From: a virus | IMG/VR virus record: IMGVR_UViG_3300029818_000005 | Location: 1 to 39,057 of that record | Reading direction: 5' to 3' (one strand) | Length of the DNA stretch: 39,057 nucleotides | In this document: positions 5,789 to 34,375 of the stretch, piece after piece | How positions within the stretch are numbered: position 1 is the first letter of the stretch | Layout of the letters: each line of letters begins with the position of its first letter | Position numbers and translations under genes: made by a program | Notes under the pieces: model-generated | What the model saw: the letters and a program-made list of their open reading frames with translations, nothing else | Told to the model about the DNA's origin: nothing | Database searches by the model: none

Positions 5789-7323
5789 ACCTGATCGACC
5801 GCGCCATCGCCGCAGTGTCGCCATACCGTGCGCTCAAGCGCGCTCAGGCGCGGATCGCTCTGCGGACCGTGGCGCGTTATGACGCCGGCAAGACCACCAA
5901 GACCTACCGGCCATCGCGCGACGCCACCACCGGCGAGGTGCAGGTCAAGCGCGACGCGGCGACAGTGCGCGCCCAGGCACGCGACCTGGAGAGGAACCAC
6001 GATCTGTTTCGCGGTGCTTTGCGCACCCTGACCCGCAACGTCGTCGGCCCCACCGGTATCAGCATTGAACCCACGCCGCGCACCACAAACGACGACATTG
6101 ATGACGACTTAGCGCGTAGCCTGCTCAATCTCTGGCGCGAGTTCACGGCCCGCCCCGAAGTCACCCGCACGATGGACTGGGTGCAGGTGCAGGAGATGGC
6201 GTGTCGTAGTTGGCTGCGCGACGGCGAAGTGTTCGCACAGATCGTCGAGGGCCTTGGCGCACCCATTCGCTATGCCACCCGCGTCCCGCTGGCGTTGGAG
6301 CTGCTCGAAGCGGACTACGTCCCGCTCGACTACGATCCGGACGAGCGCACCCAGGCAGGCATCCGCACCGACGATTGGGGGCGGCCCATCGTCTACTACG
6401 CGCACAAGCGACACCCCGGCGGAAATGCCGCCCTGAGCGATGCATCGCTCAAGGCAGTGCCGGCCGAGCGCATGTTGCACATTGCAGTGCGCGAGCGTCT
6501 GTCCGGCCTGCGCGGCATCAGCCAGTTCGCCAGTGTGATCACACGGATCTACGACATCAAGGATTATGAAGAGTCGGAGCGGTTGGCGGCACGGATCGCC
6601 GCTGCCATCGCCGCGTTCGTGCAGCGCGACAAGGAAATGGAATGGACGCCGCCCGAAGACGTCGACCCGGCCGCAGCCCGCGATTTCAGCCTCGCCGCCG
6701 GTGCAATCTTCGACCGTTTGCTGCCTGGCGAAGAGATCAAGATGCTCAACCCCAACCGCCCGAACACCGCACTGGGCGAGTTCCGTGCGGCGATGCTACG
6801 CGCCGCCGCGCGTGGCGGCGGCCTCACCTATTCGGCGTTCTCCGGCGACTACAACGGCACCTATTCGGCGCAACGCCAGGAACTCGTTGAGGGATTCGAC
6901 GGATACCGCGCGCTGACCAGCGTCTTCGTCGCGCAGTTCGTGCGGCCGGTATGGGAGCGCTTCGTCGCGCTGGCAGTCAATGCCGGTCTGGTCAAAGTGC
7001 CGCCCGGCGTGCGCATTGAGACGCTCGCGCAGGCCGAGTTTCGCGGCCCGAAGATGCCGTGGATCGACCCGAAGAAAGAGGCGGAAGGACTGTTGGTGCT
7101 CACTCGCGGTGGGTTTGGCTCGCTCACCCAGTGTATCGCCGAACGCGGGGGGCGGATGCAGGACGTGTTCGAACAGATTGCGCGCGAGCGGCGGCTTGCC
7201 GACGAATTGGGATTGGTGCTCGAAAGCGATGCCGCCAGCCCGCCACCGGCGCGTCCGCGCAAACCAAAGCAGACCAAAGCGGCGGTGCGGACAGCGTCGT
7301 CAACAACGGAGTCATCGACATGA
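5785..7323 (+). CDS. Portal protein, lambda family
   Basis: 512 aa. GTGA overlap with the gpW-like gene. The position and motifs (RDLERNHDL, WGRPIVYY, PWIDPKKEAEG) are typical of the family. Confidence 0.9.
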   Translation: MNLIDRAIAAVSPYRALKRAQARIALRTVARYDAGKTTKTYRPSRDATTGEVQVKRDAATVRAQARDLERNHDLFRGALRTLTRNVVGPTGISIEPTPRTTNDDIDDDLARSLLNLWREFTARPEVTRTMDWVQVQEMACRSWLRDGEVFAQIVEGLGAPIRYATRVPLALELLEADYVPLDYDPDERTQAGIRTDDWGRPIVYYAHKRHPGGNAALSDASLKAVPAERMLHIAVRERLSGLRGISQFASVITRIYDIKDYEESERLAARIAAAIAAFVQRDKEMEWTPPEDVDPAAARDFSLAAGAIFDRLLPGEEIKMLNPNRPNTALGEFRAAMLRAAARGGGLTYSAFSGDYNGTYSAQRQELVEGFDGYRALTSVFVAQFVRPVWERFVALAVNAGLVKVPPGVRIETLAQAEFRGPKMPWIDPKKEAEGLLVLTRGGFGSLTQCIAERGGRMQDVFEQIARERRLADELGLVLESDAASPPPARPRKPKQTKAAVRTASSTTESST

Positions 7324-9557
7324 ACAAACACAGGTCAGCGCCTGGCATCGGCGTCCGTGCAACCGCGCGCTCACCCGACCGCCAGCACATCGAACCCATG
7401 ATGCAGCTCCGGCCGGCTGCCGATGCCGCCGGGTACGAACTGCTGATTTACGGGGATATCGGCGAGTCCTGGTGGGGCGAGTCTGTCACCGCCCGATCAG
7501 TCGTTGAACAACTCAACGGGATCGCTGTCGGCACCCAGACCGTCAACGTCCGCGTCAACAGCTACGGCGGCTCCGTTGCCGATGGCCTCGCGATCTACAA
7601 CGCGCTGCGCCGTGTCTCATCGCGAGGGATCCGCGTGGTCGTCACCGTCGATGGCGTCGCGATGTCGTCGGCAGCAACCATCGCAATGGCCGGTGATGAA
7701 GTGATCATGCCGGATTCGTCGATGTTGATGATCCACGCCCCATGGGGTGGCGCGGTCGGCAACGCCAATGAGTTGCGGACATACGCGGATGTGCTCGACA
7801 CATTCGCCGAAGCGATGGCCGCAGCCTATACCGCCAAGAGCGGCAAGCCGCGCGCCGACGTGTTGGCGCTTCTACAGGATGGCGCCGACCACTACTACAC
7901 CGGCGAGCAAGCGGTAGCGGAAGGTTTCGCCGACCACATCGTCAGCACCGACGCCACAACCGCCGAACCGGACGCGCAAGCACGCGCCTTCGCCAGCGGC
8001 CTTTTGCAGCGGTTCCTTACCAGAGCACCTGAAAGCGTGGCCCAGCAAGCCATCGCCGCATCCCTGCGCTCTCGCATGGCTGTACCACAACCCACCAAAC
8101 CGGCGGAACCCGCCGCCAATGGAGACGATCTCATGTCCTACCTCGCACGCGCCCGCACGCGCCTTCAGAACCGCGCCGACGACCACGCAGGTGGTGGCGG
8201 CTCCGCGCCGGCACCGGCGCCAGCCCCGCCCACGGCCTCCGCCGATCGCACATCGATCCTGGCTGCGGACCAGCAGCGCCGAAGCGCCATTCGCGCGCAC
8301 TTTGCGCCGCATGCCGCGCGCACGGATGTCAATCAGGGTGAGATCGCACGGCTGCAGCGGGAGTGCGAAGACGCCGTGGATTGCACGCCTGAGGCGGCGG
8401 GGCTGAAACTTTTGGCGATGCTCGGGCAGGGCACCACGCCGACGGGCGCCGGCCGCGTCGAGGCCGGCAGCCAGGACGAAACCGAAACCTATCGCACCGG
8501 CGCAATCAGTGCGCTGCTCAATCGCGCCAACCCGTCCGCGCACAAGCTCGATGAGCGTGGCGCGCAGTTCCGCGGCTTCAACCTCGGCGACCTCGCCCGC
8601 GACTGCACCGAGCGCGCCGGCGTCCGTACGCGCGGCCTGTCCAAGCAAGAGATTGCAGTGCGCGCAATGCACTCGACCAGCGATTTCCCGTTGATCATCG
8701 AGAACGTGATCACCAAGTCGCTGCGCGCCGGGTACGCCGGCAGCTCGCGGACTTTCACCTTGTTCAGCCGTCAGGCGACCCTGCCCGACTTCAAGCAGAT
8801 CAGCCGCGTGCAGCTCGGCGGAGCGCCCAACCTCAAGCGCGTACAAGAGGGCGCGGATTACGAGTTCGGCACCATCGGCGAGGGCGCCGAGAAGTACGCC
8901 GTCCAGAAATACGGCCGGATCGTCGCCATCACCTGGGAGACGATCATCAACGATGACATGGACGCGCTCACCCGCATCCCGCAGGCGTTCGGCGCCAGCG
9001 CCGCCGACCTGGAAAGCGACATCGTCTACGCCATCCTGACCGGCAATCCGGGCATGGCTGACGGCGTGGCACTGTTCCACGCCAGTCACGGCAACCTCGG
9101 CGCCGCCGCCGCACTGTCCGATGCACTCGATCCGACCAAGGCCAACCCGCTCGCCGAGATGCGCAAGATGATGCTGCTGCAGAAGGGCATCGAGGGCCGC
9201 TACATCACCGTGCGCCCGCGCTACCTCATGGTCCCGCCCGACCTGGAGGAGACCGCACTCAAGGTCACCAACGCTACCCTGGTGGCCGGCAAGGCGGGCG
9301 ACGTGAATGTGGTCGGCCCGACCCTGGTGCCGGTGGTCGAACCGCGCCTGCACGACGGCAGCGCCACCGCATGGTTCGGCGCTGCCGAGCCCAGCACCAT
9401 CGACACCATCGAGTTCGCCTACCTGCAGGGCCATGAAGGTGTGTTCACCGAGACCCGCAACGGCTTCGAGGTCGATGGGGTGCAGGTCAAGTGCCGCCAC
9501 GTGTTCGGCGCCAAGGCCATCGACTTCCGCGGTCTGTTCAAGAACGCCGGCGCGTAA
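7320..9557 (+). CDS. ClpP-type prohead protease fused to the major capsid protein
   Basis: ATGA overlap with portal. The N-terminus VNSYGGSVADGLAIYNAL...AMSSAATIAMAG...MIHAPWGG is ClpP-like. An Ala/Pro-rich linker follows, then a C-terminal roughly 400 aa with capsid-like features (FPLIIENVITKSLRAGY...). Confidence 0.85.
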   Translation: MNKHRSAPGIGVRATARSPDRQHIEPMMQLRPAADAAGYELLIYGDIGESWWGESVTARSVVEQLNGIAVGTQTVNVRVNSYGGSVADGLAIYNALRRVSSRGIRVVVTVDGVAMSSAATIAMAGDEVIMPDSSMLMIHAPWGGAVGNANELRTYADVLDTFAEAMAAAYTAKSGKPRADVLALLQDGADHYYTGEQAVAEGFADHIVSTDATTAEPDAQARAFASGLLQRFLTRAPESVAQQAIAASLRSRMAVPQPTKPAEPAANGDDLMSYLARARTRLQNRADDHAGGGGSAPAPAPAPPTASADRTSILAADQQRRSAIRAHFAPHAARTDVNQGEIARLQRECEDAVDCTPEAAGLKLLAMLGQGTTPTGAGRVEAGSQDETETYRTGAISALLNRANPSAHKLDERGAQFRGFNLGDLARDCTERAGVRTRGLSKQEIAVRAMHSTSDFPLIIENVITKSLRAGYAGSSRTFTLFSRQATLPDFKQISRVQLGGAPNLKRVQEGADYEFGTIGEGAEKYAVQKYGRIVAITWETIINDDMDALTRIPQAFGASAADLESDIVYAILTGNPGMADGVALFHASHGNLGAAAALSDALDPTKANPLAEMRKMMLLQKGIEGRYITVRPRYLMVPPDLEETALKVTNATLVAGKAGDVNVVGPTLVPVVEPRLHDGSATAWFGAAEPSTIDTIEFAYLQGHEGVFTETRNGFEVDGVQVKCRHVFGAKAIDFRGLFKNAGA

Positions 9558-11899: not shown

Positions 11900-13108
11900 A
11901 TGCCCACCGATTTTTTGCATGGCGTTGAAGTTGTCGAGATCGACAACGGCGCACGCCCCATTGCCGTCGCCCGCTCCAGCGTCATCGGACTGGTCGGCAC
12001 CGCGCCCGATCTGGATGCCGTTGCGTTGCCGGCCAGCTTCGCGACCCAGACCGACTGGGATGCCGCCAAGGCCGCATTCCCGCTGAACACCCCGGTGCTG
12101 ATTGCGGGCAGCTTGCGCGAGGCGGCGCAGTTGGGACTGGCCGGTACCTTGCCGGCGGCACTGCGCGGCGTGTTCGACCAGACCGGCGCGCTGGTGGTGG
12201 TGGTGCGCGTGGCCGAAGGCCTCGACGCCGCCGCGACGCAGGCCAACGTGATCGGCGGCGTCGATGTTGGCACTGGCCAGTACACCGGCATCAGCGCGTT
12301 CCTCGGCGCCGAGAGCACGGTAAAGGTGACGCCGCGCGTGCTGGTTGCGCACGGCTTCAGCCAGAACGCAGCGGTGGCCAACGCGCTGTTGACGGTCGCC
12401 GATCGTCTGCGTGCAGTGGTTATCGCCGATGGCCCGAACACCGATGATGCTGCGGCGATTGCCTACGCCGGCACCTTCGGCAGCGCGCGCTTGTTCCTGG
12501 TTGATCCGTGGGTCAAGGTGCTGTCGGCGAGCGGCGCCGAAACGGTCGAACCGGCGTCCGCGCGCGTGGCCGGCCTGATCGCCAAGTCCGATTCCGAGCG
12601 CGGCTTCTGGTGGAGCCCGTCGAACCAGGAACTGCGCGGCGTGCTTGGCACCGCTCGGCCGGTGGACTTCGCCTTGGGCGACGCCAACGCGCGCGCCAAC
12701 CTGCTCAACGAAGCGAAGGTGGCCACGATCATCCACCAGAACGGCTTCCGGCTGTGGGGCAACCGCAGCGCCACCATCGATCCCAAGTGGGCGTTCCTGA
12801 GCGTGCGTCGTACCGCCGACATCATCAACGAAAGCCTGCTGCGCGCGCACCTGTGGGCGGTGGATCGCAACCTCACCCGCACCTACGTCAGTGATGTGAC
12901 CGATGGCCTCAACGCCTTCATGCGCCAGCTCACCGCGCAGGGCGCCATCCTCGGCGGCCGCGCCTGGGCCGATCCGGACCTGAACACACCAATCAGCCTC
13001 GCCGCCGGCAAGGTGTTCTTCAACTTCGAGTTCACCCCGCCGGCACCGGCCGAGCGCATCACCTTCCGCTCGCAGCTCACCAATGACTACCTGCAGGAGA
13101 TTCTGTAA
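11900..13108 (+). CDS. gpFI: Contractile tail sheath protein (P2 FI-like)
   Basis: GAAGGAG RBS; 402 aa. MPTDFLHGVEVVEIDNG...GFRLWGNRS is typical of the sheath family. Confidence 0.9.
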   Translation: MPTDFLHGVEVVEIDNGARPIAVARSSVIGLVGTAPDLDAVALPASFATQTDWDAAKAAFPLNTPVLIAGSLREAAQLGLAGTLPAALRGVFDQTGALVVVVRVAEGLDAAATQANVIGGVDVGTGQYTGISAFLGAESTVKVTPRVLVAHGFSQNAAVANALLTVADRLRAVVIADGPNTDDAAAIAYAGTFGSARLFLVDPWVKVLSASGAETVEPASARVAGLIAKSDSERGFWWSPSNQELRGVLGTARPVDFALGDANARANLLNEAKVATIIHQNGFRLWGNRSATIDPKWAFLSVRRTADIINESLLRAHLWAVDRNLTRTYVSDVTDGLNAFMRQLTAQGAILGGRAWADPDLNTPISLAAGKVFFNFEFTPPAPAERITFRSQLTNDYLQEIL

Positions 13109-30075: not shown

Positions 30076-30513
30076 TTACTGACCGGACGCCACAGACCGC
30101 ACCGCACGCACGCAGGCGTCGTCGTAGGCGCGGAGACAGTAGCCGCCGGCGGCATCCTCGCTGGGACTGTAGTCGTCGGCGTCGTACCCGAAATCGACGT
30201 AACAAGCGTAGGTGGGGCTTCGCGCGTTGATCGTGCTAGTCCAATACCAGTCGCTCTTGGCGTCGGGGAATGTCGCGAGGTCGATGTTCGGGGCTTCGCG
30301 CGAGCTATCAACCAGGGACAGCAGCTCGTCGGCGGTTGGCAGGCGCCAACCATCGCCCAGCGCGGCGCAGGCCGCCTCGGCCGTTGCGTGGTCAACGGGG
30401 TGGCCGTCGCACAGCGTGGCGCTCCATTCCAGCGCGGGGAGATTGCCGCTGGCGGGGGTGGTGGCGTAGACGGCGGTGGGCGTGCTGGTGGCTGGCGCTG
30501 CGGCGGTGGTCAT
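30076..30513 (-). CDS. DUF1566 (Lcl C-terminal domain)-like protein; first gene of the leftward operon
   Basis: GWRLPTADELLSLVD...DWYWTSTINARSPTYACYVDFGYD is the DUF1566 signature. Confidence 0.65.
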   Translation of the reverse strand: MTTAAAPATSTPTAVYATTPASGNLPALEWSATLCDGHPVDHATAEAACAALGDGWRLPTADELLSLVDSSREAPNIDLATFPDAKSDWYWTSTINARSPTYACYVDFGYDADDYSPSEDAAGGYCLRAYDDACVRAVRSVASGQ

Positions 30514-30553: not shown

Positions 30554-30582
30554 ACATTACCGCAATGGTTATGCCATGTCAA
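30554..30582 (-). promoter_or_regulatory. PL-type promoter: -35 TTGACA, 17-nt spacer, -10 TAATGT (minus strand)
   Basis: Reverse complement reads ggtaTTGACAtggcataaccattgcggTAATGTctcc, about 35 nt upstream of ATG 30513. Confidence 0.6.
30557..30571. promoter_or_regulatory. Operator OL1: TTACC-GCAAT-GGTTA
   Basis: 15-bp inverted repeat overlapping the PL spacer and -10. Confidence 0.6.
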
Positions 30583-30729: not shown

Positions 30730-30984
30730 ATGAACAGCGCGCACCGCAAGACGTTGGCCGCCATCTTTGCCGAACCGGTGAACGGGGCATTGGAGTGGTC
30801 CAGAATCGAGGCGCTGCTGCTGGCCATCGGCTGCCGGCGAGTTGATGGCAGCGGGTCGTCGGTCACGTTCGAGAAGGATGGGGAGAAGGTGTTTTTCCAT
30901 CGCCCGCACCCGCGTAAGGAAGCGCTGCGTTACCGCGTCAAGGATGCGCGCTCGTTCTTGCAATGCATTGGAGTAACGCCATGA
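30730..30984 (+). CDS. hicA: HicA-family mRNA interferase toxin
   Basis: MNSAHRKTLAAIFAEPVNGALEWSRIEALLLAIG...VFFHRPHPRKEALRYRVKDARSFL is the classic HicA pattern. Confidence 0.85.
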   Translation: MNSAHRKTLAAIFAEPVNGALEWSRIEALLLAIGCRRVDGSGSSVTFEKDGEKVFFHRPHPRKEALRYRVKDARSFLQCIGVTP

Positions 30985-31310
30985 ACACCATGATCTACAA
31001 GCGCTACGCGGCCCGCATCGAGTACGATCCGGAAGATCGCATCTTCGTCGGCCACGTTGCCGGCATCCGCGATGTTGTGGGATTCCACGGGTCCACGGTG
31101 GACGAACTGGAGCAGGCGTTCCATGCTGCGGTGGACGATTACACCGAGGCATGCAGCAAGCTGGGGCAGCGCCCAGAGCGGCCGGCGAGCGGCAAGATAC
31201 TGCTGAGGGTGTCGCCGGATTTGCACGCCGTCGCGATCCGCGCCGCCGAGCTCGCCGGCAAAAGCCTCAATCAGTGGGCGGCCGACACTCTTGGGCAGGC
31301 GGCGCGGTGA
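30981..31310 (+). CDS. hicB: HicB-family antitoxin (RHH C-terminus)
   Basis: ATGA overlap with hicA. YKRYAARIEYDPEDRIFVGHVAGIRDVVGFHGSTVDELEQAF...SGKILLRVSPDLH...KSLNQW. Confidence 0.85.
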   Translation: MNTMIYKRYAARIEYDPEDRIFVGHVAGIRDVVGFHGSTVDELEQAFHAAVDDYTEACSKLGQRPERPASGKILLRVSPDLHAVAIRAAELAGKSLNQWAADTLGQAAR

Positions 31311-31389: not shown

Positions 31390-32259
31390 TCAGCGGGTCA
31401 ATTCGCGCATCCACGCCTTGGCGCTCAGCGCCTCGCCGGTGTCGGTACGCACGACTTCGCCGACGATGCGGTCGTAGCGGAATGTGCGCTCGGCTTGGCG
31501 CTCCATGCAGTATCCAGCAAAGCATTGCCTGTCCGCGCGATGCACTACTACTTCTCGGTCGGTCACGTTGCCGAAAGCGTCTTCGTAGGTAAATGTCACG
31601 CGCTCAGGTCCTACTGCAGCAGTTGAACCATCCCAACCGCCATCTCCGCGATGCGACACATCGTGCATGGGAGAGCGCAGCAAGCGGATACCGTCGTCAT
31701 GATTGGGTGTTTCGAGGCGCGCGGATTTTTCCAGATCCCGCCTTGCGCAGAGTTCGCGCACAGACGCTGCGGCCCGTTCTCGCTGGAGACGCAGGCGCTC
31801 GGGTAAGGTTTCGAGCGCGATGAGTCGTTGCCTTTCGCGCTCTTCGCGCTCCTCGCGCAGGCGGCTTTCCTCCGCTTCGCGCCGAGCACGCGCCTCTTGC
31901 GCGGTTTGAGCGTCGGCCTGGCGCCATGCGTCTTTTGTTTCTGCCTTGAATCGCAGCCACTCCGCACGGATATTGCCAACCTGTGCGCTGATCGCTGTCA
32001 GCTTCGGCAGCATCAGCAGCGCGGCGATCATCGAAACGCTTGCAACCGTGCCTGGGAGGCGCACGCCGATGCCAAGCAGCATCGCCAGAAACCACACGGC
32101 GCTGCCGCCGAACAGTCCGGCGAGATGGCGCAATACGGCATGCCGGCCGGCCATTCGACCGCGTTGCGCGATCACCGCCCATACCGCCGCGAACAAGATC
32201 AGGCTGGCGATGATCAGAAATCCTTCTGCCGCTGTTGGCGGCTGCGGCTCAGGCGACAT
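31390..32259 (-). CDS. Unrecognised protein: 3 TM helices, E/R-rich coiled coil, WYL-like C-terminal domain (gene C of the repressor operon)
   Basis: TM segments FLIIASLILFAAVWAVIA, LAGLFGGSAVWFLAMLLGIGV and VASVSMIAALLMLPKL. Coiled coil ARARREAEESRLREEREERERQRL. C-terminus VTFTYEDAFGNVTDREVVV...CFAGYCMERQAERTFRYDRIVGEV. GGAGG 5 nt upstream of the ATG. Confidence 0.7.
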   Translation of the reverse strand: MSPEPQPPTAAEGFLIIASLILFAAVWAVIAQRGRMAGRHAVLRHLAGLFGGSAVWFLAMLLGIGVRLPGTVASVSMIAALLMLPKLTAISAQVGNIRAEWLRFKAETKDAWRQADAQTAQEARARREAEESRLREEREERERQRLIALETLPERLRLQRERAAASVRELCARRDLEKSARLETPNHDDGIRLLRSPMHDVSHRGDGGWDGSTAAVGPERVTFTYEDAFGNVTDREVVVHRADRQCFAGYCMERQAERTFRYDRIVGEVVRTDTGEALSAKAWMRELTR

Positions 32260-32752
32260 CACGGCCTCCGTGAGCCACGGGGGAGCTGCGGCGCGCACGC
32301 CACCATCGCGCCAACCGCTTGAACGGCGCTTCGCGCTTCGGTGGGTCTTCGCGCGCGGCGATCTCCACCACCAGCTCGGCCCAGCGGCGCTCGGCGGCGG
32401 CCACTACGCGACGGTGCCGGCGGCGCACGTCGTAGAGCGCGAACAATATAGCGACCGCGATCAGCCCACCCATCCACAGCAGCGCCGGGCCTGCTTGATG
32501 GCGATCGGCTTCCGGGGCGCCAAGCAAGCTCAAGCTGAGCACGCCGATTACCAGCACTGCGGCAAGAAATGGCACCAGCAGCACGGTCAACGCCAGCGCT
32601 TCGTGGCGCCGCGCCGCGCTGTGCAGGCGATCACGTGCAGTTTGCAGATCGGCCAGCGGCAAGGTTTGAATCCACTCGGGCGCACCGCCGATGTGGATCG
32701 TCTGGTCGCGTATGTACAGGTGCTGCGCGATGTTGCCGGCACGCTCAGCCAT
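32249..32752 (-). CDS. Unrecognised 2-TM protein with an N-terminal QTIHIGG motif (gene B)
   Basis: TGATG overlap with gene A. TM segments ALALTVLLVPFLAAVLVIGVLSLSLL and ALLWMGGLIAVAILFALY. Arg-rich tail. Confidence 0.65.
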   Translation of the reverse strand: MAERAGNIAQHLYIRDQTIHIGGAPEWIQTLPLADLQTARDRLHSAARRHEALALTVLLVPFLAAVLVIGVLSLSLLGAPEADRHQAGPALLWMGGLIAVAILFALYDVRRRHRRVVAAAERRWAELVVEIAAREDPPKREAPFKRLARWWRARRSSPVAHGGRDVA

Positions 32753-32955
32753 CACGGTGTCTTTGCCTTTGTCGGCGGCGCCGTTTGGTGGATCGTCTGC
32801 GAGCCGATATGCACGATACCGGCGTTGACTACGGTGCTGCCGCAGATATGCACGTTGCCCGCAGCCGGTGTTGCGGCCGGCACGGCCGCCGCCAGGGCTT
32901 CGTCTAGTTGCCGGCGGGCCTCAACAACGGCGGCATTGATGTCATCGTCTCGCAT
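32752..32955 (-). CDS. Unrecognised 67-aa protein carrying NVHICG, IVHIGS and TIHQ repeats (gene A)
   Basis: Starts 3 nt after the repressor stop. The codon third position is GC-rich. Confidence 0.55.
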   Translation of the reverse strand: MRDDDINAAVVEARRQLDEALAAAVPAATPAAGNVHICGSTVVNAGIVHIGSQTIHQTAPPTKAKTP

Positions 32956-32958
32956 GCG

Positions 32959-33474
32959 CTATTCCTGCTTGGGGTGATCGGCCAGTTCTTCGGTAAGGAC
33001 TTTCTGCAGGGCCTCATCGAGTGCGCGGCGGCTAGCAGCGAGCGCAACGCCAGCCGCCAGGCTTTGATAGGCCAGCACGATGGCCCTGGCTAGCGCCGCG
33101 TCGGTGGGCAGCAGGCGTTTGCGCCGAAAGGCATCCATCGCCTCGCTGACCGCCCGGCTCAGCAACACCGGGTCGGGGCGGTGCGACAGCGGGCTGATCG
33201 TCACGGTCTCGATGGCCGTGGTTGCGACGCCGATATGGACGGTGCCGTGCGGCTGATCCATCCAGCCTTGGGCCAGGCCGAACGTGCGCTCTATGGCGCG
33301 GGCTAGCGCATGCCCGATGCCCTTTGGGTTCGTCTCAGAAATCCATTGGCTGACTTGCGCCTGGGACCAGTCCCCTGACTTTTCTGCAAACTTGGTTGGC
33401 CCACCCTCTCGGGTTACCAAGGCGCGGATGTTCATGGTCCTGGCAGTCTTCGCATCCATGTGCTCATAGTGCAT
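32959..33474 (-). CDS. CI-type repressor: XRE-family HTH N-terminus, helical C-terminus, no S24 peptidase domain recognisable
   Basis: MNIRALVTREGGPTKFAEKSGDWSQAQVSQWISETNPKGIGHALARAIERTFGLAQGWMDQP. The start is uncertain: ATG 33474, 33459 or 33435. The longest ORF (to 33546) would overlap the cro ATG. Confidence 0.7.
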   Translation of the reverse strand: MHYEHMDAKTARTMNIRALVTREGGPTKFAEKSGDWSQAQVSQWISETNPKGIGHALARAIERTFGLAQGWMDQPHGTVHIGVATTAIETVTISPLSHRPDPVLLSRAVSEAMDAFRRKRLLPTDAALARAIVLAYQSLAAGVALAASRRALDEALQKVLTEELADHPKQE

Positions 33475-33478
33475 GGCG

Positions 33479-33493
33479 TTACCACGGCGGTAA
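33479..33493. promoter_or_regulatory. Operator OR1: TTACC-ACGGC-GGTAA (perfect half-sites)
   Basis: 15-bp inverted repeat between the repressor start and the PR -35. Confidence 0.6.
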
Positions 33494-33508: not shown

Positions 33509-33537
33509 TTGCAACCGCGTAACCGATACGGTAATGT
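33509..33537 (+). promoter_or_regulatory. PR-type promoter: -35 TTGCAA, 17-nt spacer, -10 TAATGT
   Basis: gtaTTGCAAccgcgtaaccgatacggTAATGTcttgggcATG. The -10 ends 7 nt before the cro ATG. Confidence 0.6.
33520..33534. promoter_or_regulatory. Operator OR2: TAACC-GATAC-GGTAA
   Basis: Overlaps the PR spacer and -10 in the same register as OL1 at PL (GGTAATGT). Confidence 0.6.
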
Positions 33538-33544
33538 CTTGGGC

Positions 33545-33820
33545 ATGAATATCTCAGCCTACACGCGCGCCGAGGGTGGAACCGGCAAAATCAATTGCCC
33601 AGTGCTCGCCCGCGTGGCAGATCGCGCCGGATGCAGCTTCCGGACGCTGTACATGATTGCGCTCGGGCACAAGCGCGCGTCCCCGCAACTTGCGCAGCGC
33701 ATTCAATCCGCCACGGACGGCGCGGTCTCGATTGCCGAGCTGCGCCCCGACCTCGTTGCAGCGATAGAAGCCGCCGGCTACACCCGCGCAGACCCCACGC
33801 CCACCGAGAAGGCGGCATGA
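33545..33820 (+). CDS. Cro-like HTH regulator
   Basis: First gene after PR, divergent from the repressor. HTH VLARVADRAGCSFRTLYMIALGHKRASPQLAQRI. Confidence 0.65.
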   Translation: MNISAYTRAEGGTGKINCPVLARVADRAGCSFRTLYMIALGHKRASPQLAQRIQSATDGAVSIAELRPDLVAAIEAAGYTRADPTPTEKAA

Positions 33821-33823
33821 GCC

Positions 33824-34105
33824 ATGAAACCTCACTACTGCGTCCGCAACGGCCGACTGATGCGCGTGGCGTCGCCCATGGACACGAAAACCGCCGTTCT
33901 GATCACCGCCCTCGGTGGCCCCACCGCCGTCGCGCGCCGCTTCAAAATCCGCTCGCCCTCGGTGATCGGATGGCGCACGCGCGGCGGCATCCCGGCTGCG
34001 CGCTTGCAGACGCTGCAGGCGATGGCGGTCACCCAGCAAGACATTGCCGCCGCACTCGTTGCGGCCGGTTTCCCTGTGTGCGACAGCGAGCGCGAGGCCG
34101 CCTGA
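33824..34105 (+). CDS. YdaS/Cro-family HTH protein
   Basis: LITALGGPTAVARRFKIRSPSVIGWRTRGGIPAARLQTLQAM matches the YdaS-type pattern. ATG at M19 is an alternative start. Confidence 0.6.
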   Translation: MKPHYCVRNGRLMRVASPMDTKTAVLITALGGPTAVARRFKIRSPSVIGWRTRGGIPAARLQTLQAMAVTQQDIAAALVAAGFPVCDSEREAA

Positions 34106-34375
34106 ATGCCAAACCCTGCCTACATCCCAGCTTCCCTGCGCAGCGTCGGCCGGCCACCCGATCTGCTGACCCATGTCGGCCTTGCGCTGACGGTAGGCGA
34201 TGGCTCGCCAGAGGCAGCTGCGCGGTTTTTTTTGAGCCTGGAAGAGGCCGAGCGGACCGCGCTGGTGCTGTTGGAGGCGGCAGCGCAGCAGCGCTATACG
34301 GCTTTCATCCAATCGTCCAAATCGTCGGGAATGCCGAGCCCGGATGTGTCGCCGGATGAAGGCCAGTTGCAATGA
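34106..34375 (+). CDS. Hypothetical protein
   Basis: ATG directly follows the upstream TGA. The 3' 82 nt overlap the convergent gene 34294..34518. Confidence 0.4.
   Translation: MPNPAYIPASLRSVGRPPDLLTHVGLALTVGDGSPEAAARFFLSLEEAERTALVLLEAAAQQRYTAFIQSSKSSGMPSPDVSPDEGQLQ

Follow-up and report, generated by a model that had tools for sequence, protein, structure and literature searches.

A 39,057-nucleotide (nt) stretch of viral DNA, positions 1 to 39,057 of the IMG/VR record IMGVR_UViG_3300029818_000005 and hereafter called the window, encodes on its minus strand a 289-residue protein (P0001, to which all residue numbers refer) in which three predicted transmembrane (TM) helices are followed by a long charged helix, a flexible linker and a C-terminal WYL domain. 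The combination of an N-terminal membrane anchor with a C-terminal WYL domain, hereafter TM-WYL, defines a large family with a common WYL fold and a set of conserved residues, whose genes recur in or beside prophage repressor operons and are present or absent among related phages in the manner of cargo. From these observations we infer when the protein would be made, what it would bind and what its output would be: the reading favoured here, with a probability of about 0.45, is that TM-WYL may be a lysogen-expressed, membrane-tethered sensor of single-stranded DNA (ssDNA) or of another anionic ligand, acting in superinfection exclusion or abortive infection. The most informative feature, overlooked in an earlier description made from the letters of this DNA (the sequence-only reading), is the position of TM-WYL in the repressor operon.

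The WYL domain and the protein that carries it

The last ~70 residues of P0001 were described as WYL-like in the sequence-only reading, which quoted residues 221-273 (VTFTYEDAFGNVTDREVVVHRADRQCFAGYCMERQAERTFRYDRIVGEVVRTD) and named a Pfam profile search and a fold comparison as checks; both bear the description out, and the C-terminal domain is a genuine WYL domain. Pfam PF13280 matches residues 214-265 (E=8.3e-5, 23.0 bits against a gathering cut-off of 21.8), and matches are also found to the generic WYL model of PADLOC (9e-7) and to PHROG 6785, annotated as of unknown function (8e-11). Furthermore, 122 of 150 relatives match PF13280 on their own, the best at 1.6e-14, and the family profile matches PafBC's WYL domain in the PDB (E=1.1e-6), as well as PafC and the WYL-domain protein 7tb5. 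An AlphaFold2 model of the full-length protein rested on two sequences and gave a predicted local distance difference test score (pLDDT) below 50 at the C-terminus, so that residues 213-289 were remodelled with a 32-sequence alignment, with a resulting pLDDT of 95.3 and a predicted template modelling score (pTM) of 0.83. The domain model is an Sm/SH3-like, five-stranded barrel (strands 2-14, 20-30, 34-39, 44-49 and 53-59 in model numbering) with a short sixth strand and a C-terminal helix. In a Foldseek comparison with the PDB, WYL proteins take all of the first 14 places (PafBC and BrxR chains; query-normalised TM-score 0.48-0.62, probability 1.00), and in a viral structure library the best match is a 69-residue protein of Xanthomonas phage Xaa_vB_phi31 (E=2e-5), with several proteins named 'WYL domain-containing' next.

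A chance resemblance, or a degenerate domain that no longer functions, might be read from the single-sequence Pfam score, just 1.2 bits over threshold, and from the replacement of the Tyr of the W-Y-L triplet by Cys. This is scarcely credible in the face of 461 clusters with strong column conservation, the PDB profile match, a high-confidence model with WYL proteins as its best Foldseek matches, and 90% identity of the domain between P0001 and its homologue P0002, and was effectively ruled out.

The 289-codon open reading frame (ORF) of P0001 starts at ATG 32259, with a GGAGG Shine-Dalgarno sequence 5 nt upstream. An alternative GTG lies further upstream, and the ATG is taken as the start because the residues encoded between the two codons are not kept in P0002. 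The latter (307 residues, 67% identity by BLASTP) is the sole full-length homologue; its C-terminal 77 residues are 90% identical to those of P0001 while the middle has diverged, with insertions and deletions, and such identity amid a diverged remainder shows directly that the domain is under purifying selection. A protein identical to P0001 is encoded by 13 metagenomic contigs (up to 39.7 kb). Word-indexed homologue searches gave two full-length relatives, and eight with the domain profile; megablast of the region against GenBank phages gave no match, the full-length protein as a query against IMG/VR and GTDB genomes retrieved no related loci, and a DNA search of 5,426 Escherichia coli genomes with a related Yersinia phage gene found no relative. 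A query built from a six-sequence alignment did retrieve related loci. The G+C content at third codon positions is 0.68 in the TM-WYL gene against 0.71-0.81 in its neighbours, and the codon-position signal is weaker, which is consistent with acquired cargo.

The gene and the parts of its product are as follows.

31390..32259, minus strand: TM-WYL gene, P0001, 289 residues (ORF and translation)
32167..32223, minus strand: TM helix 1, residues 13-31 (Kyte-Doolittle 19-mer mean 2.65; AlphaFold2 helix 10-34)
32068..32124, minus strand: TM helix 2, residues 46-64 (Kyte-Doolittle mean 1.96; AlphaFold2 helix 39-65)
31990..32046, minus strand: TM helix 3, residues 72-90 (Kyte-Doolittle mean 1.88; AlphaFold2 helix 71-82)
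31711..31974, minus strand: Glu/Arg-rich long helix, residues 96-183 (88 residues; 42% Glu+Arg, sparse hydrophobic positions)
31609..31710, minus strand: flexible linker, residues 184-217 (34 residues; pLDDT below 50, no regular structure)
31393..31608, minus strand: WYL domain with a C-terminal T-G-E...W extension, residues 218-289 (72 residues; Pfam, PADLOC, PHROG, PafBC match in the PDB, AlphaFold2, Foldseek)

The three TM helices proposed in the sequence-only reading hold up as predictions: the segments are strongly hydrophobic, obey the positive-inside rule and are kept in P0002, P0003 and P0004. The N-terminal 12 residues have a net charge of -2, the Arg-rich loop between TM1 and TM2 (RGRMAGRHAVLRH; also given as QRGRMAGRHAVLRH) has one of +4, and the stretch after TM3 is basic; because of this charge distribution the positive-inside rule gives a predicted N-out/C-in topology, by which everything after residue 90, including the WYL domain, would be cytoplasmic. 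Of the coiled coil of ~80 residues described earlier, the Glu/Arg-rich helix stands, at 88 residues, and the coiled coil does not: since hydrophobic positions are too sparse for a classical coiled coil, the segment looks more like an ER/K single alpha-helix spacer. AlphaFold2 draws residues 90-183 as a single continuous helix (pLDDT 75-92 over residues ~100-150, reaching up to 92), which at 0.15 nm per residue could span up to ~13 nm. At the same position relatives carry Pro/Ala-rich linkers or a TerB-like segment instead.

The TM-WYL family and its conserved residues

The architecture of P0001, which the sequence-only reading did not recognise and considered unusual, turns out not to be singular. 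An exhaustive hidden Markov model search of 1.84 billion cluster representatives retrieved a large, mostly phage-borne family of 461 clusters at E<=1e-3 (55 at E<=1e-10), in which every match except the query itself covered only the last ~70 residues. Among the best 151 of the 461, 123 carry one to three hydrophobic segments N-terminal to the WYL domain (one in 43, two in 35 and three in 45), and in 111 the WYL domain lies at the extreme C-terminus, its envelope ending within 10 residues of the end of the protein. Lys and Arg together average 2.59 in the 15 residues after the last TM segment against 0.59 before the first, and the WYL domain would therefore be cytoplasmic family-wide. The TM regions themselves are kept only among the closest relatives (e.g. 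TM1 is common to P0001, P0003 and P0004), and the linker is unconserved, with a median length of 74 residues. In the databases the members bear only the names 'hypothetical protein' or 'WYL domain-containing protein'.

A BRCT domain follows the WYL domain in 20 of 150 relatives, two have a SAP domain, a TerB-like segment is found in P0003, P0004, P0035 and P0036, and the 17 families to which the 150 gave matches include no helix-turn-helix (HTH). Anantharaman et al., in 2012, are said to be the source for WYL-TerB and WYL-BRCT fusions. One P2-like viral contig (L018) has a 116-residue TM-WYL gene (5881-6231) with, immediately after it, a gene for a soluble WYL-like domain with BRCT (6305-6799), as if the TM-WYL-BRCT fusion of P0015, encoded at locus L026, had been split in two.

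This WYL subtype also exists as soluble domains standing alone (69-70 residues, no TM segment), encoded by lytic phages of Stenotrophomonas (Ptah, L022 3989-4198; StenM_174; Stm18; BUCT609) and Xanthomonas (Xaa_vB_phi31, BFVD A0A868BZ36). In Ptah, a member of the Autographiviridae, the gene belongs to the early region and stands directly upstream of that for the primase. These copies could be ligand decoys or ssDNA-binding helpers.

The family signature comprises F223, Y225, D227, G230, R235 (100%), V237, G249, C251 (99%), R254, R258-T-F-R261, D263-R264, G267, T274-G-E276 and W283; Y225, R258 and F260 are each conserved at 99% and R261 at 79%, and all are present in P0001. The Pfam model does not cover the T-G-E...W extension, which is peculiar to this WYL subtype. 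The function of PafBC needs the Tyr/His of strand beta1, the triplet Tyr and, in the loop between beta4 and beta5, two Arg and a Phe (PMC6789036); in P0001 the beta1 residue is retained as Y225, and the loop residues as R258, F260 and R261. The W-Y-L triplet itself is absent from P0001, which has C246-F247 at the Y-L positions and no Trp (aligned to 'wYFEAYC' of PafBC); the L position is Phe, Leu or Ile in 95% of the family. The missing triplet does not bar membership, because CapW and BrxR also deviate from it (WHV) and are still accepted as WYL domains (PMC11662680). In CapW, conserved Arg residues, two of which flank the motif equivalent to W-Y-L, contact ssDNA (PMC11662680).

Genomic context and exchange of cargo

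The window is a temperate phage of ~39 kb, with integrase, GpA-type terminase, VapE/primase, SLT and tail genes. The features of its immunity region, besides TM-WYL, are as follows.

32959..33474, minus strand: CI-like repressor, 171 residues, at the head of the operon (match to PHROG 12107 'transcriptional repressor', E=1.6e-20)
32752..32955, minus strand: 67-residue protein, always paired with a two-TM protein (ORF and gene call)
32249..32752, minus strand: 167-residue two-TM protein (ORF and gene call; TM peaks at ~58 and ~88; 13 homologues)
33479-33493 and 33520-33534: two operator-like palindromes, TWACC-N5-GGTAA, in the 70-bp gap between CI and cro
30557-30571: third operator-like palindrome, ~45 bp upstream of a leftward operon headed by an Lcl_C gene
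33545..33820, plus strand: Cro-like HTH gene, divergent from the repressor operon (weak YdaS_toxin and HTH_3 matches)
30730..31310, plus strand: HicA-HicB toxin-antitoxin pair, convergent with TM-WYL, inside the immunity region (PF07927, PF05534)

The order CI, 67-residue protein, 167-residue protein, TM-WYL is leftward throughout, with TM-WYL last. The junctions are tight: a 3-nt gap separates the CI gene from that of the 67-residue protein, the latter shares base 32752 with the 167-residue protein gene, and the stop of the 167-residue protein gene overlaps the start of TM-WYL by 11 nt. The repressor has a weak YdaS/HTH match and none to Peptidase_S24, the 67-residue protein matches no family in the profile libraries, and the 167-residue protein has a weak, sub-threshold DUF6232 match. 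The palindrome occurs three times in the window against 0.01 expected, and the sites delimit an immunity region enclosing CI, the two-gene 67/167-residue cassette, TM-WYL and HicAB. The phage that encodes P0002 (L007) has the same gene order and the same palindromes at both edges (8740-8754, 12253-12267 and 12278-12292), with two sites at the place equivalent to 30557-30571. Lysogen expression would be expected because TM-WYL ends the CI operon inside this operator-bounded region, where it shares the orientation of the repressor, as a Rex-like module does.

Some neighbouring genes may be recorded here. The cro side (33545-34375, plus strand) comprises three consecutive small genes, the first two for Cro/YdaS-like HTH proteins (91 and 93 residues) and the third (89 residues) without a family match. 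At the place of the HicAB pair of the window, L007 has two HicB-type genes and one HicA gene. Beside the third palindrome, the product of the first gene of the leftward operon (30106-30513, minus strand) carries an Lcl C-terminal domain (PF07603, E=2e-18), which is unusual for a phage early gene.

The neighbourhoods of TM-WYL in other phages are the following.

L009: XRE gene, Arc, TM-WYL
L011/L015: TM-WYL, then an XRE HTH gene
L012: XRE repressor directly upstream of TM-WYL
L018: XRE gene, gene for a 246-residue protein, TM-WYL, soluble WYL-BRCT
L021 (Yersinia phage vB_YenM_201.16, Peduoviridae, an isolated phage): cI, 185-residue TM-WYL, int
L023: Gp49/HTH pair just downstream; HTH gene two genes downstream of TM-WYL
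L024: Phage_CI_repr, SNase, TM-WYL
L026: HTH gene, two-TM protein, TM-WYL-BRCT, NA37
L027: HTH gene, TM-WYL
L028: CI with HTH and Peptidase_S24, TM-WYL

Together with the window and L007 these make 12 distinct layouts (L017 and L020 resolved no repressor), and in 11 of the 12 TM-WYL stands in or beside a CI/XRE repressor operon, the exception being L023. All these TM-WYL genes are on the repressor side, divergent from cro/cII. Since a phage has ~55 genes, adjacency by chance would be met in a few per cent of phages, and the recurrence beside the repressor, in a sample that is small and partly related, is therefore not accidental.

The presence of the gene is, at the same time, variable. In the related phages L030-L032 the identity of CI is 63% overall and ~90% for the C-terminal ~110 residues, and the same pair of 67-residue and two-TM proteins follows it. 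In the slot of TM-WYL, L030 has a lipoprotein, L031 a Zn-ribbon TM protein encoded on the other strand and L032 other TM proteins. Such swapping for other membrane proteins in the same slot is typical of exclusion or defence morons. The comparison of the window CI (32959-33474) with that of L031 (3300-3797), ~90% identical over the C-terminal ~110 residues with diverged N-terminal HTH parts and neither with Peptidase_S24, suggests swapped immunity specificity on a shared oligomerisation domain.

The cassette that follows the CI-like repressor, a 56-68-residue protein and a two-TM protein of 123-179 residues, recurs in at least five related phages, whether or not they have TM-WYL (window 32249-32955, minus strand; L007 9313-10004; L030 3801-4540; L031 3801-4372; L032 3831-4477). 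Two motifs are invariant in the two-TM protein, QT..GG.PEWIQ at its N-terminus and YD.RRRHR...AE.RWAE..VE after its second TM segment, and the cassette might form an exclusion module of its own. It was rejected as an obligate partner of TM-WYL, the pair being found without TM-WYL in L030-L032 and TM-WYL without the pair in L012, L015, L021, L024, L027 and L028. The two-TM protein upstream of the L026 TM-WYL-BRCT gene is not supported as a homologue of the 167-residue protein (hhalign probability 1.5%). An amyloid-signalling-like motif shared by the C-terminus of the 67-residue protein (IGSQTIH; minus strand, candidate located at 32752-32955) and the N-terminus of the 167-residue protein (IRDQTIH, or IANQTIH in relatives; minus strand, 32660-32755) is probably due to chance, as 81-163 of 500 shuffles reach its score.

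A different use of the same position would be as a sensor of DNA damage for prophage induction, in which TM-WYL would detect ssDNA arising from damage, like PafBC, DriD and CapW, and inactivate or sequester the co-encoded repressor, e.g. at the membrane, as an anti-repressor of the ImmA/Tum type. TM-WYL is indeed co-operonic with the repressor, and the order cI, TM-WYL, int of the Yersinia phage recalls the order immR-immA-int of ICEBs1. The adjoining repressors, moreover, are mostly short HTH proteins without Peptidase_S24 (window, L009, L012, L015, L018, L024, L026 and L027), which would need another induction input; such repressors may be no commoner here than in these phage groups at large, and the CI of L028, with HTH and Peptidase_S24, adjoins TM-WYL all the same. 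The WYL domains of PafBC and CapW do sense ssDNA after DNA damage (PMC11662680, PMC6789036). However, TM-WYL is missing from L030-L032, whose repressors are close relatives and whose membrane cargo is unrelated, which places it outside the core switch, and membrane anchoring would have no obvious role, so that induction sensing is judged unlikely.

The dispensability of TM-WYL among close relatives also bears on a non-defensive function, in which DNA, or a protein bound to it, would be tethered to the membrane by TM-WYL, which would anchor the replicon or prophage, help phage DNA entry or packaging, or modify a membrane process of the host by lysogenic conversion. A link to DNA is provided by the fusions to the DNA-binding BRCT and SAP domains and by the neighbouring gene for the nucleoid-associated protein NA37; fusions to TerB, linked to membrane stress, fit a tether too, and the variable TM anchors with their spacer-like linkers suggest that positioning outweighs a specific channel. 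Against a tether stand this dispensability and the place of the gene in the repressor-side operon rather than in replication or morphogenesis modules, and it is considered quite unlikely.

Proposed function and relation to known systems

According to the favoured reading, that of a lysogen-expressed sensor acting in exclusion or abortive infection, TM-WYL would be accessory cargo at the end of the CI operon, made, like lambda rexAB, in the lysogen alongside the repressor. Anchored in the inner membrane by its three TM helices, N-out/C-in, the protein would carry its WYL domain in the cytoplasm on a long stalk, helical and charged, and the Arg cluster (R235, R254, R258, R261 and R264) together with Y225 would bind an anionic ligand at the membrane's inner face. 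Most likely this would be ssDNA and, less likely, RNA or a nucleotide, appearing when a superinfecting phage injects its DNA or begins to replicate it; the fusions to BRCT and SAP, and the neighbouring genes for NA37 and for an SNase nuclease, speak for a connection with DNA. Binding would then cluster or rearrange the membrane anchors, leading either to a block of DNA entry (superinfection exclusion) or to membrane depolarisation (abortive infection).

The best sequence and structure matches of the WYL domain are the wHTH-WYL-WCX factors PafBC, DriD, CapW and BrxR, which share with TM-WYL the Sm/SH3-like WYL fold, the beta1 Tyr, the R-x-F-R loop between beta4 and beta5 and a link to phage or defence biology. 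Unlike them, P0001 has no HTH family match, its N-terminal 90 residues forming three predicted TM helices instead, and it has no WCX, ending 24 residues after the Pfam WYL match with the subtype-specific T-G-E...W extension. Its output cannot be transcriptional. It also differs in being phage-encoded from the WYL proteins of the 2019 PafBC survey, in which the domain was almost only bacterial and more than 90% HTH-linked, with 81 sequences outside Bacteria (PMC6789036). Makarova et al. 2014 (PMC4012209) list fusions of WYL with BRCT, with TerB and with nucleases or helicases, and infer that the domain regulates defence by binding negatively charged ligands; partners of the BRCT and TerB-like kinds are found in the TM-WYL family too, and the ligand inference applies to it as well, whereas the main text of that paper mentions neither a transmembrane WYL class nor a placement in prophage repressor operons.

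By genomic layout, the closest comparison is with RexA/RexB of lambda, and also with SieA of P22 and lactococcal Sie2009, which like TM-WYL are accessory membrane-protein genes lying with the repressor in an operator-bounded immunity region. The lambda immunity region has the order OL-rexB-rexA-cI-OR, matched by the layout of the window, and Rex-type exclusion combines a membrane location with a cytoplasmic sensing part; in TM-WYL sensor and anchor are in one polypeptide. Searches of Pfam, PHROGs, NCBIfam and PADLOC gave no match of P0001 to RexA/RexB or to a known Sie or Abi protein.

By protein layout, TM-WYL resembles Cap15, PycTM, Cam1 CARF-TM and TM-SAVED, all with N-terminal TM helices of variable number and a small C-terminal ligand-binding domain, and differs from them in having WYL as the sensor. 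Ligand-driven membrane disruption is a plausible mode for TM effectors of the Cap15/PycTM/Cam1 type. The likeness raises the question whether TM-WYL might be a receptor of a small-nucleotide messenger, i.e. a membrane effector analogous to these nucleotide-activated proteins with a WYL sensor, as would be in keeping with a domain that is net-negative save for the conserved Arg pocket and the invariant T-G-E motif. Perception of c-di-GMP by a WYL transcription factor has been reported (PMC11880434). Nevertheless, no CD-NTase or other cyclase, no type III CRISPR and no other signal-generating gene lies beside TM-WYL in the window or in the other contexts examined, PADLOC matched P0001 to none of these effector families, and the BRCT and SAP fusions point to DNA, all of which makes a nucleotide receptor decidedly improbable.

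Several observations weigh against the exclusion or abortive infection reading itself. The sample of genomic contexts is small, was not randomly drawn and includes partly related phages; simple scans found no sigma-70-type promoter and no clear terminator, the operon structure being read from gene spacing alone. PADLOC gave no match of P0001 to a specific defence-system protein, with hits to generic WYL models only. The triplet Tyr, functionally important in PafBC, is Cys246 in P0001, while P0002 and 62% of the family have Tyr there. The net charge of the WYL domain is about -1, both in P0001 and as the family median, unlike that of a general nucleic-acid binder, and any nucleic-acid binding would therefore take place via a local Arg pocket and not a basic surface. 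Finally, the TM regions are unconserved across the family, which fits a mere anchor as well as an effector.

The direct relatives of the domain, i.e. PHROG 6785, the Yersinia phage protein UNA05945.1 and the 69-residue protein of Xaa_vB_phi31, are annotated only as hypothetical or of unknown function; UNA05945.1 is like P0001 in having TM segments and WYL, and lies between cI and int, while the Xanthomonas and Stenotrophomonas versions are soluble and belong to lytic phages. Literature searches on transmembrane or membrane WYL proteins, or on WYL and superinfection exclusion, found no description of the TM-WYL architecture. TM-WYL is widespread in temperate phages and apparently unstudied. A bolder generalisation, possible but doubtful, would make the TM-WYL proteins widespread, unrecognised single-gene prophage immunity effectors, each a one-polypeptide analogue of RexAB in which the cytoplasmic WYL domain would sense, at the inner membrane, ssDNA of a phage entering or replicating, and the TM helices of the same protein would carry out exclusion or membrane depolarisation, with the soluble copies of lytic phages as decoys for that ligand.

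So far WYL has been understood as an allosteric switch of transcription factors (PafBC, DriD, CapW and BrxR) or as an accessory enzyme subunit. A WYL domain bolted to the membrane without a DNA-binding output domain, and encoded in repressor operons, implies a different output logic for this sensor, and makes TM-WYL a family in which exclusion or abortive infection by prophages, or damage sensing independent of SOS, may be sought.

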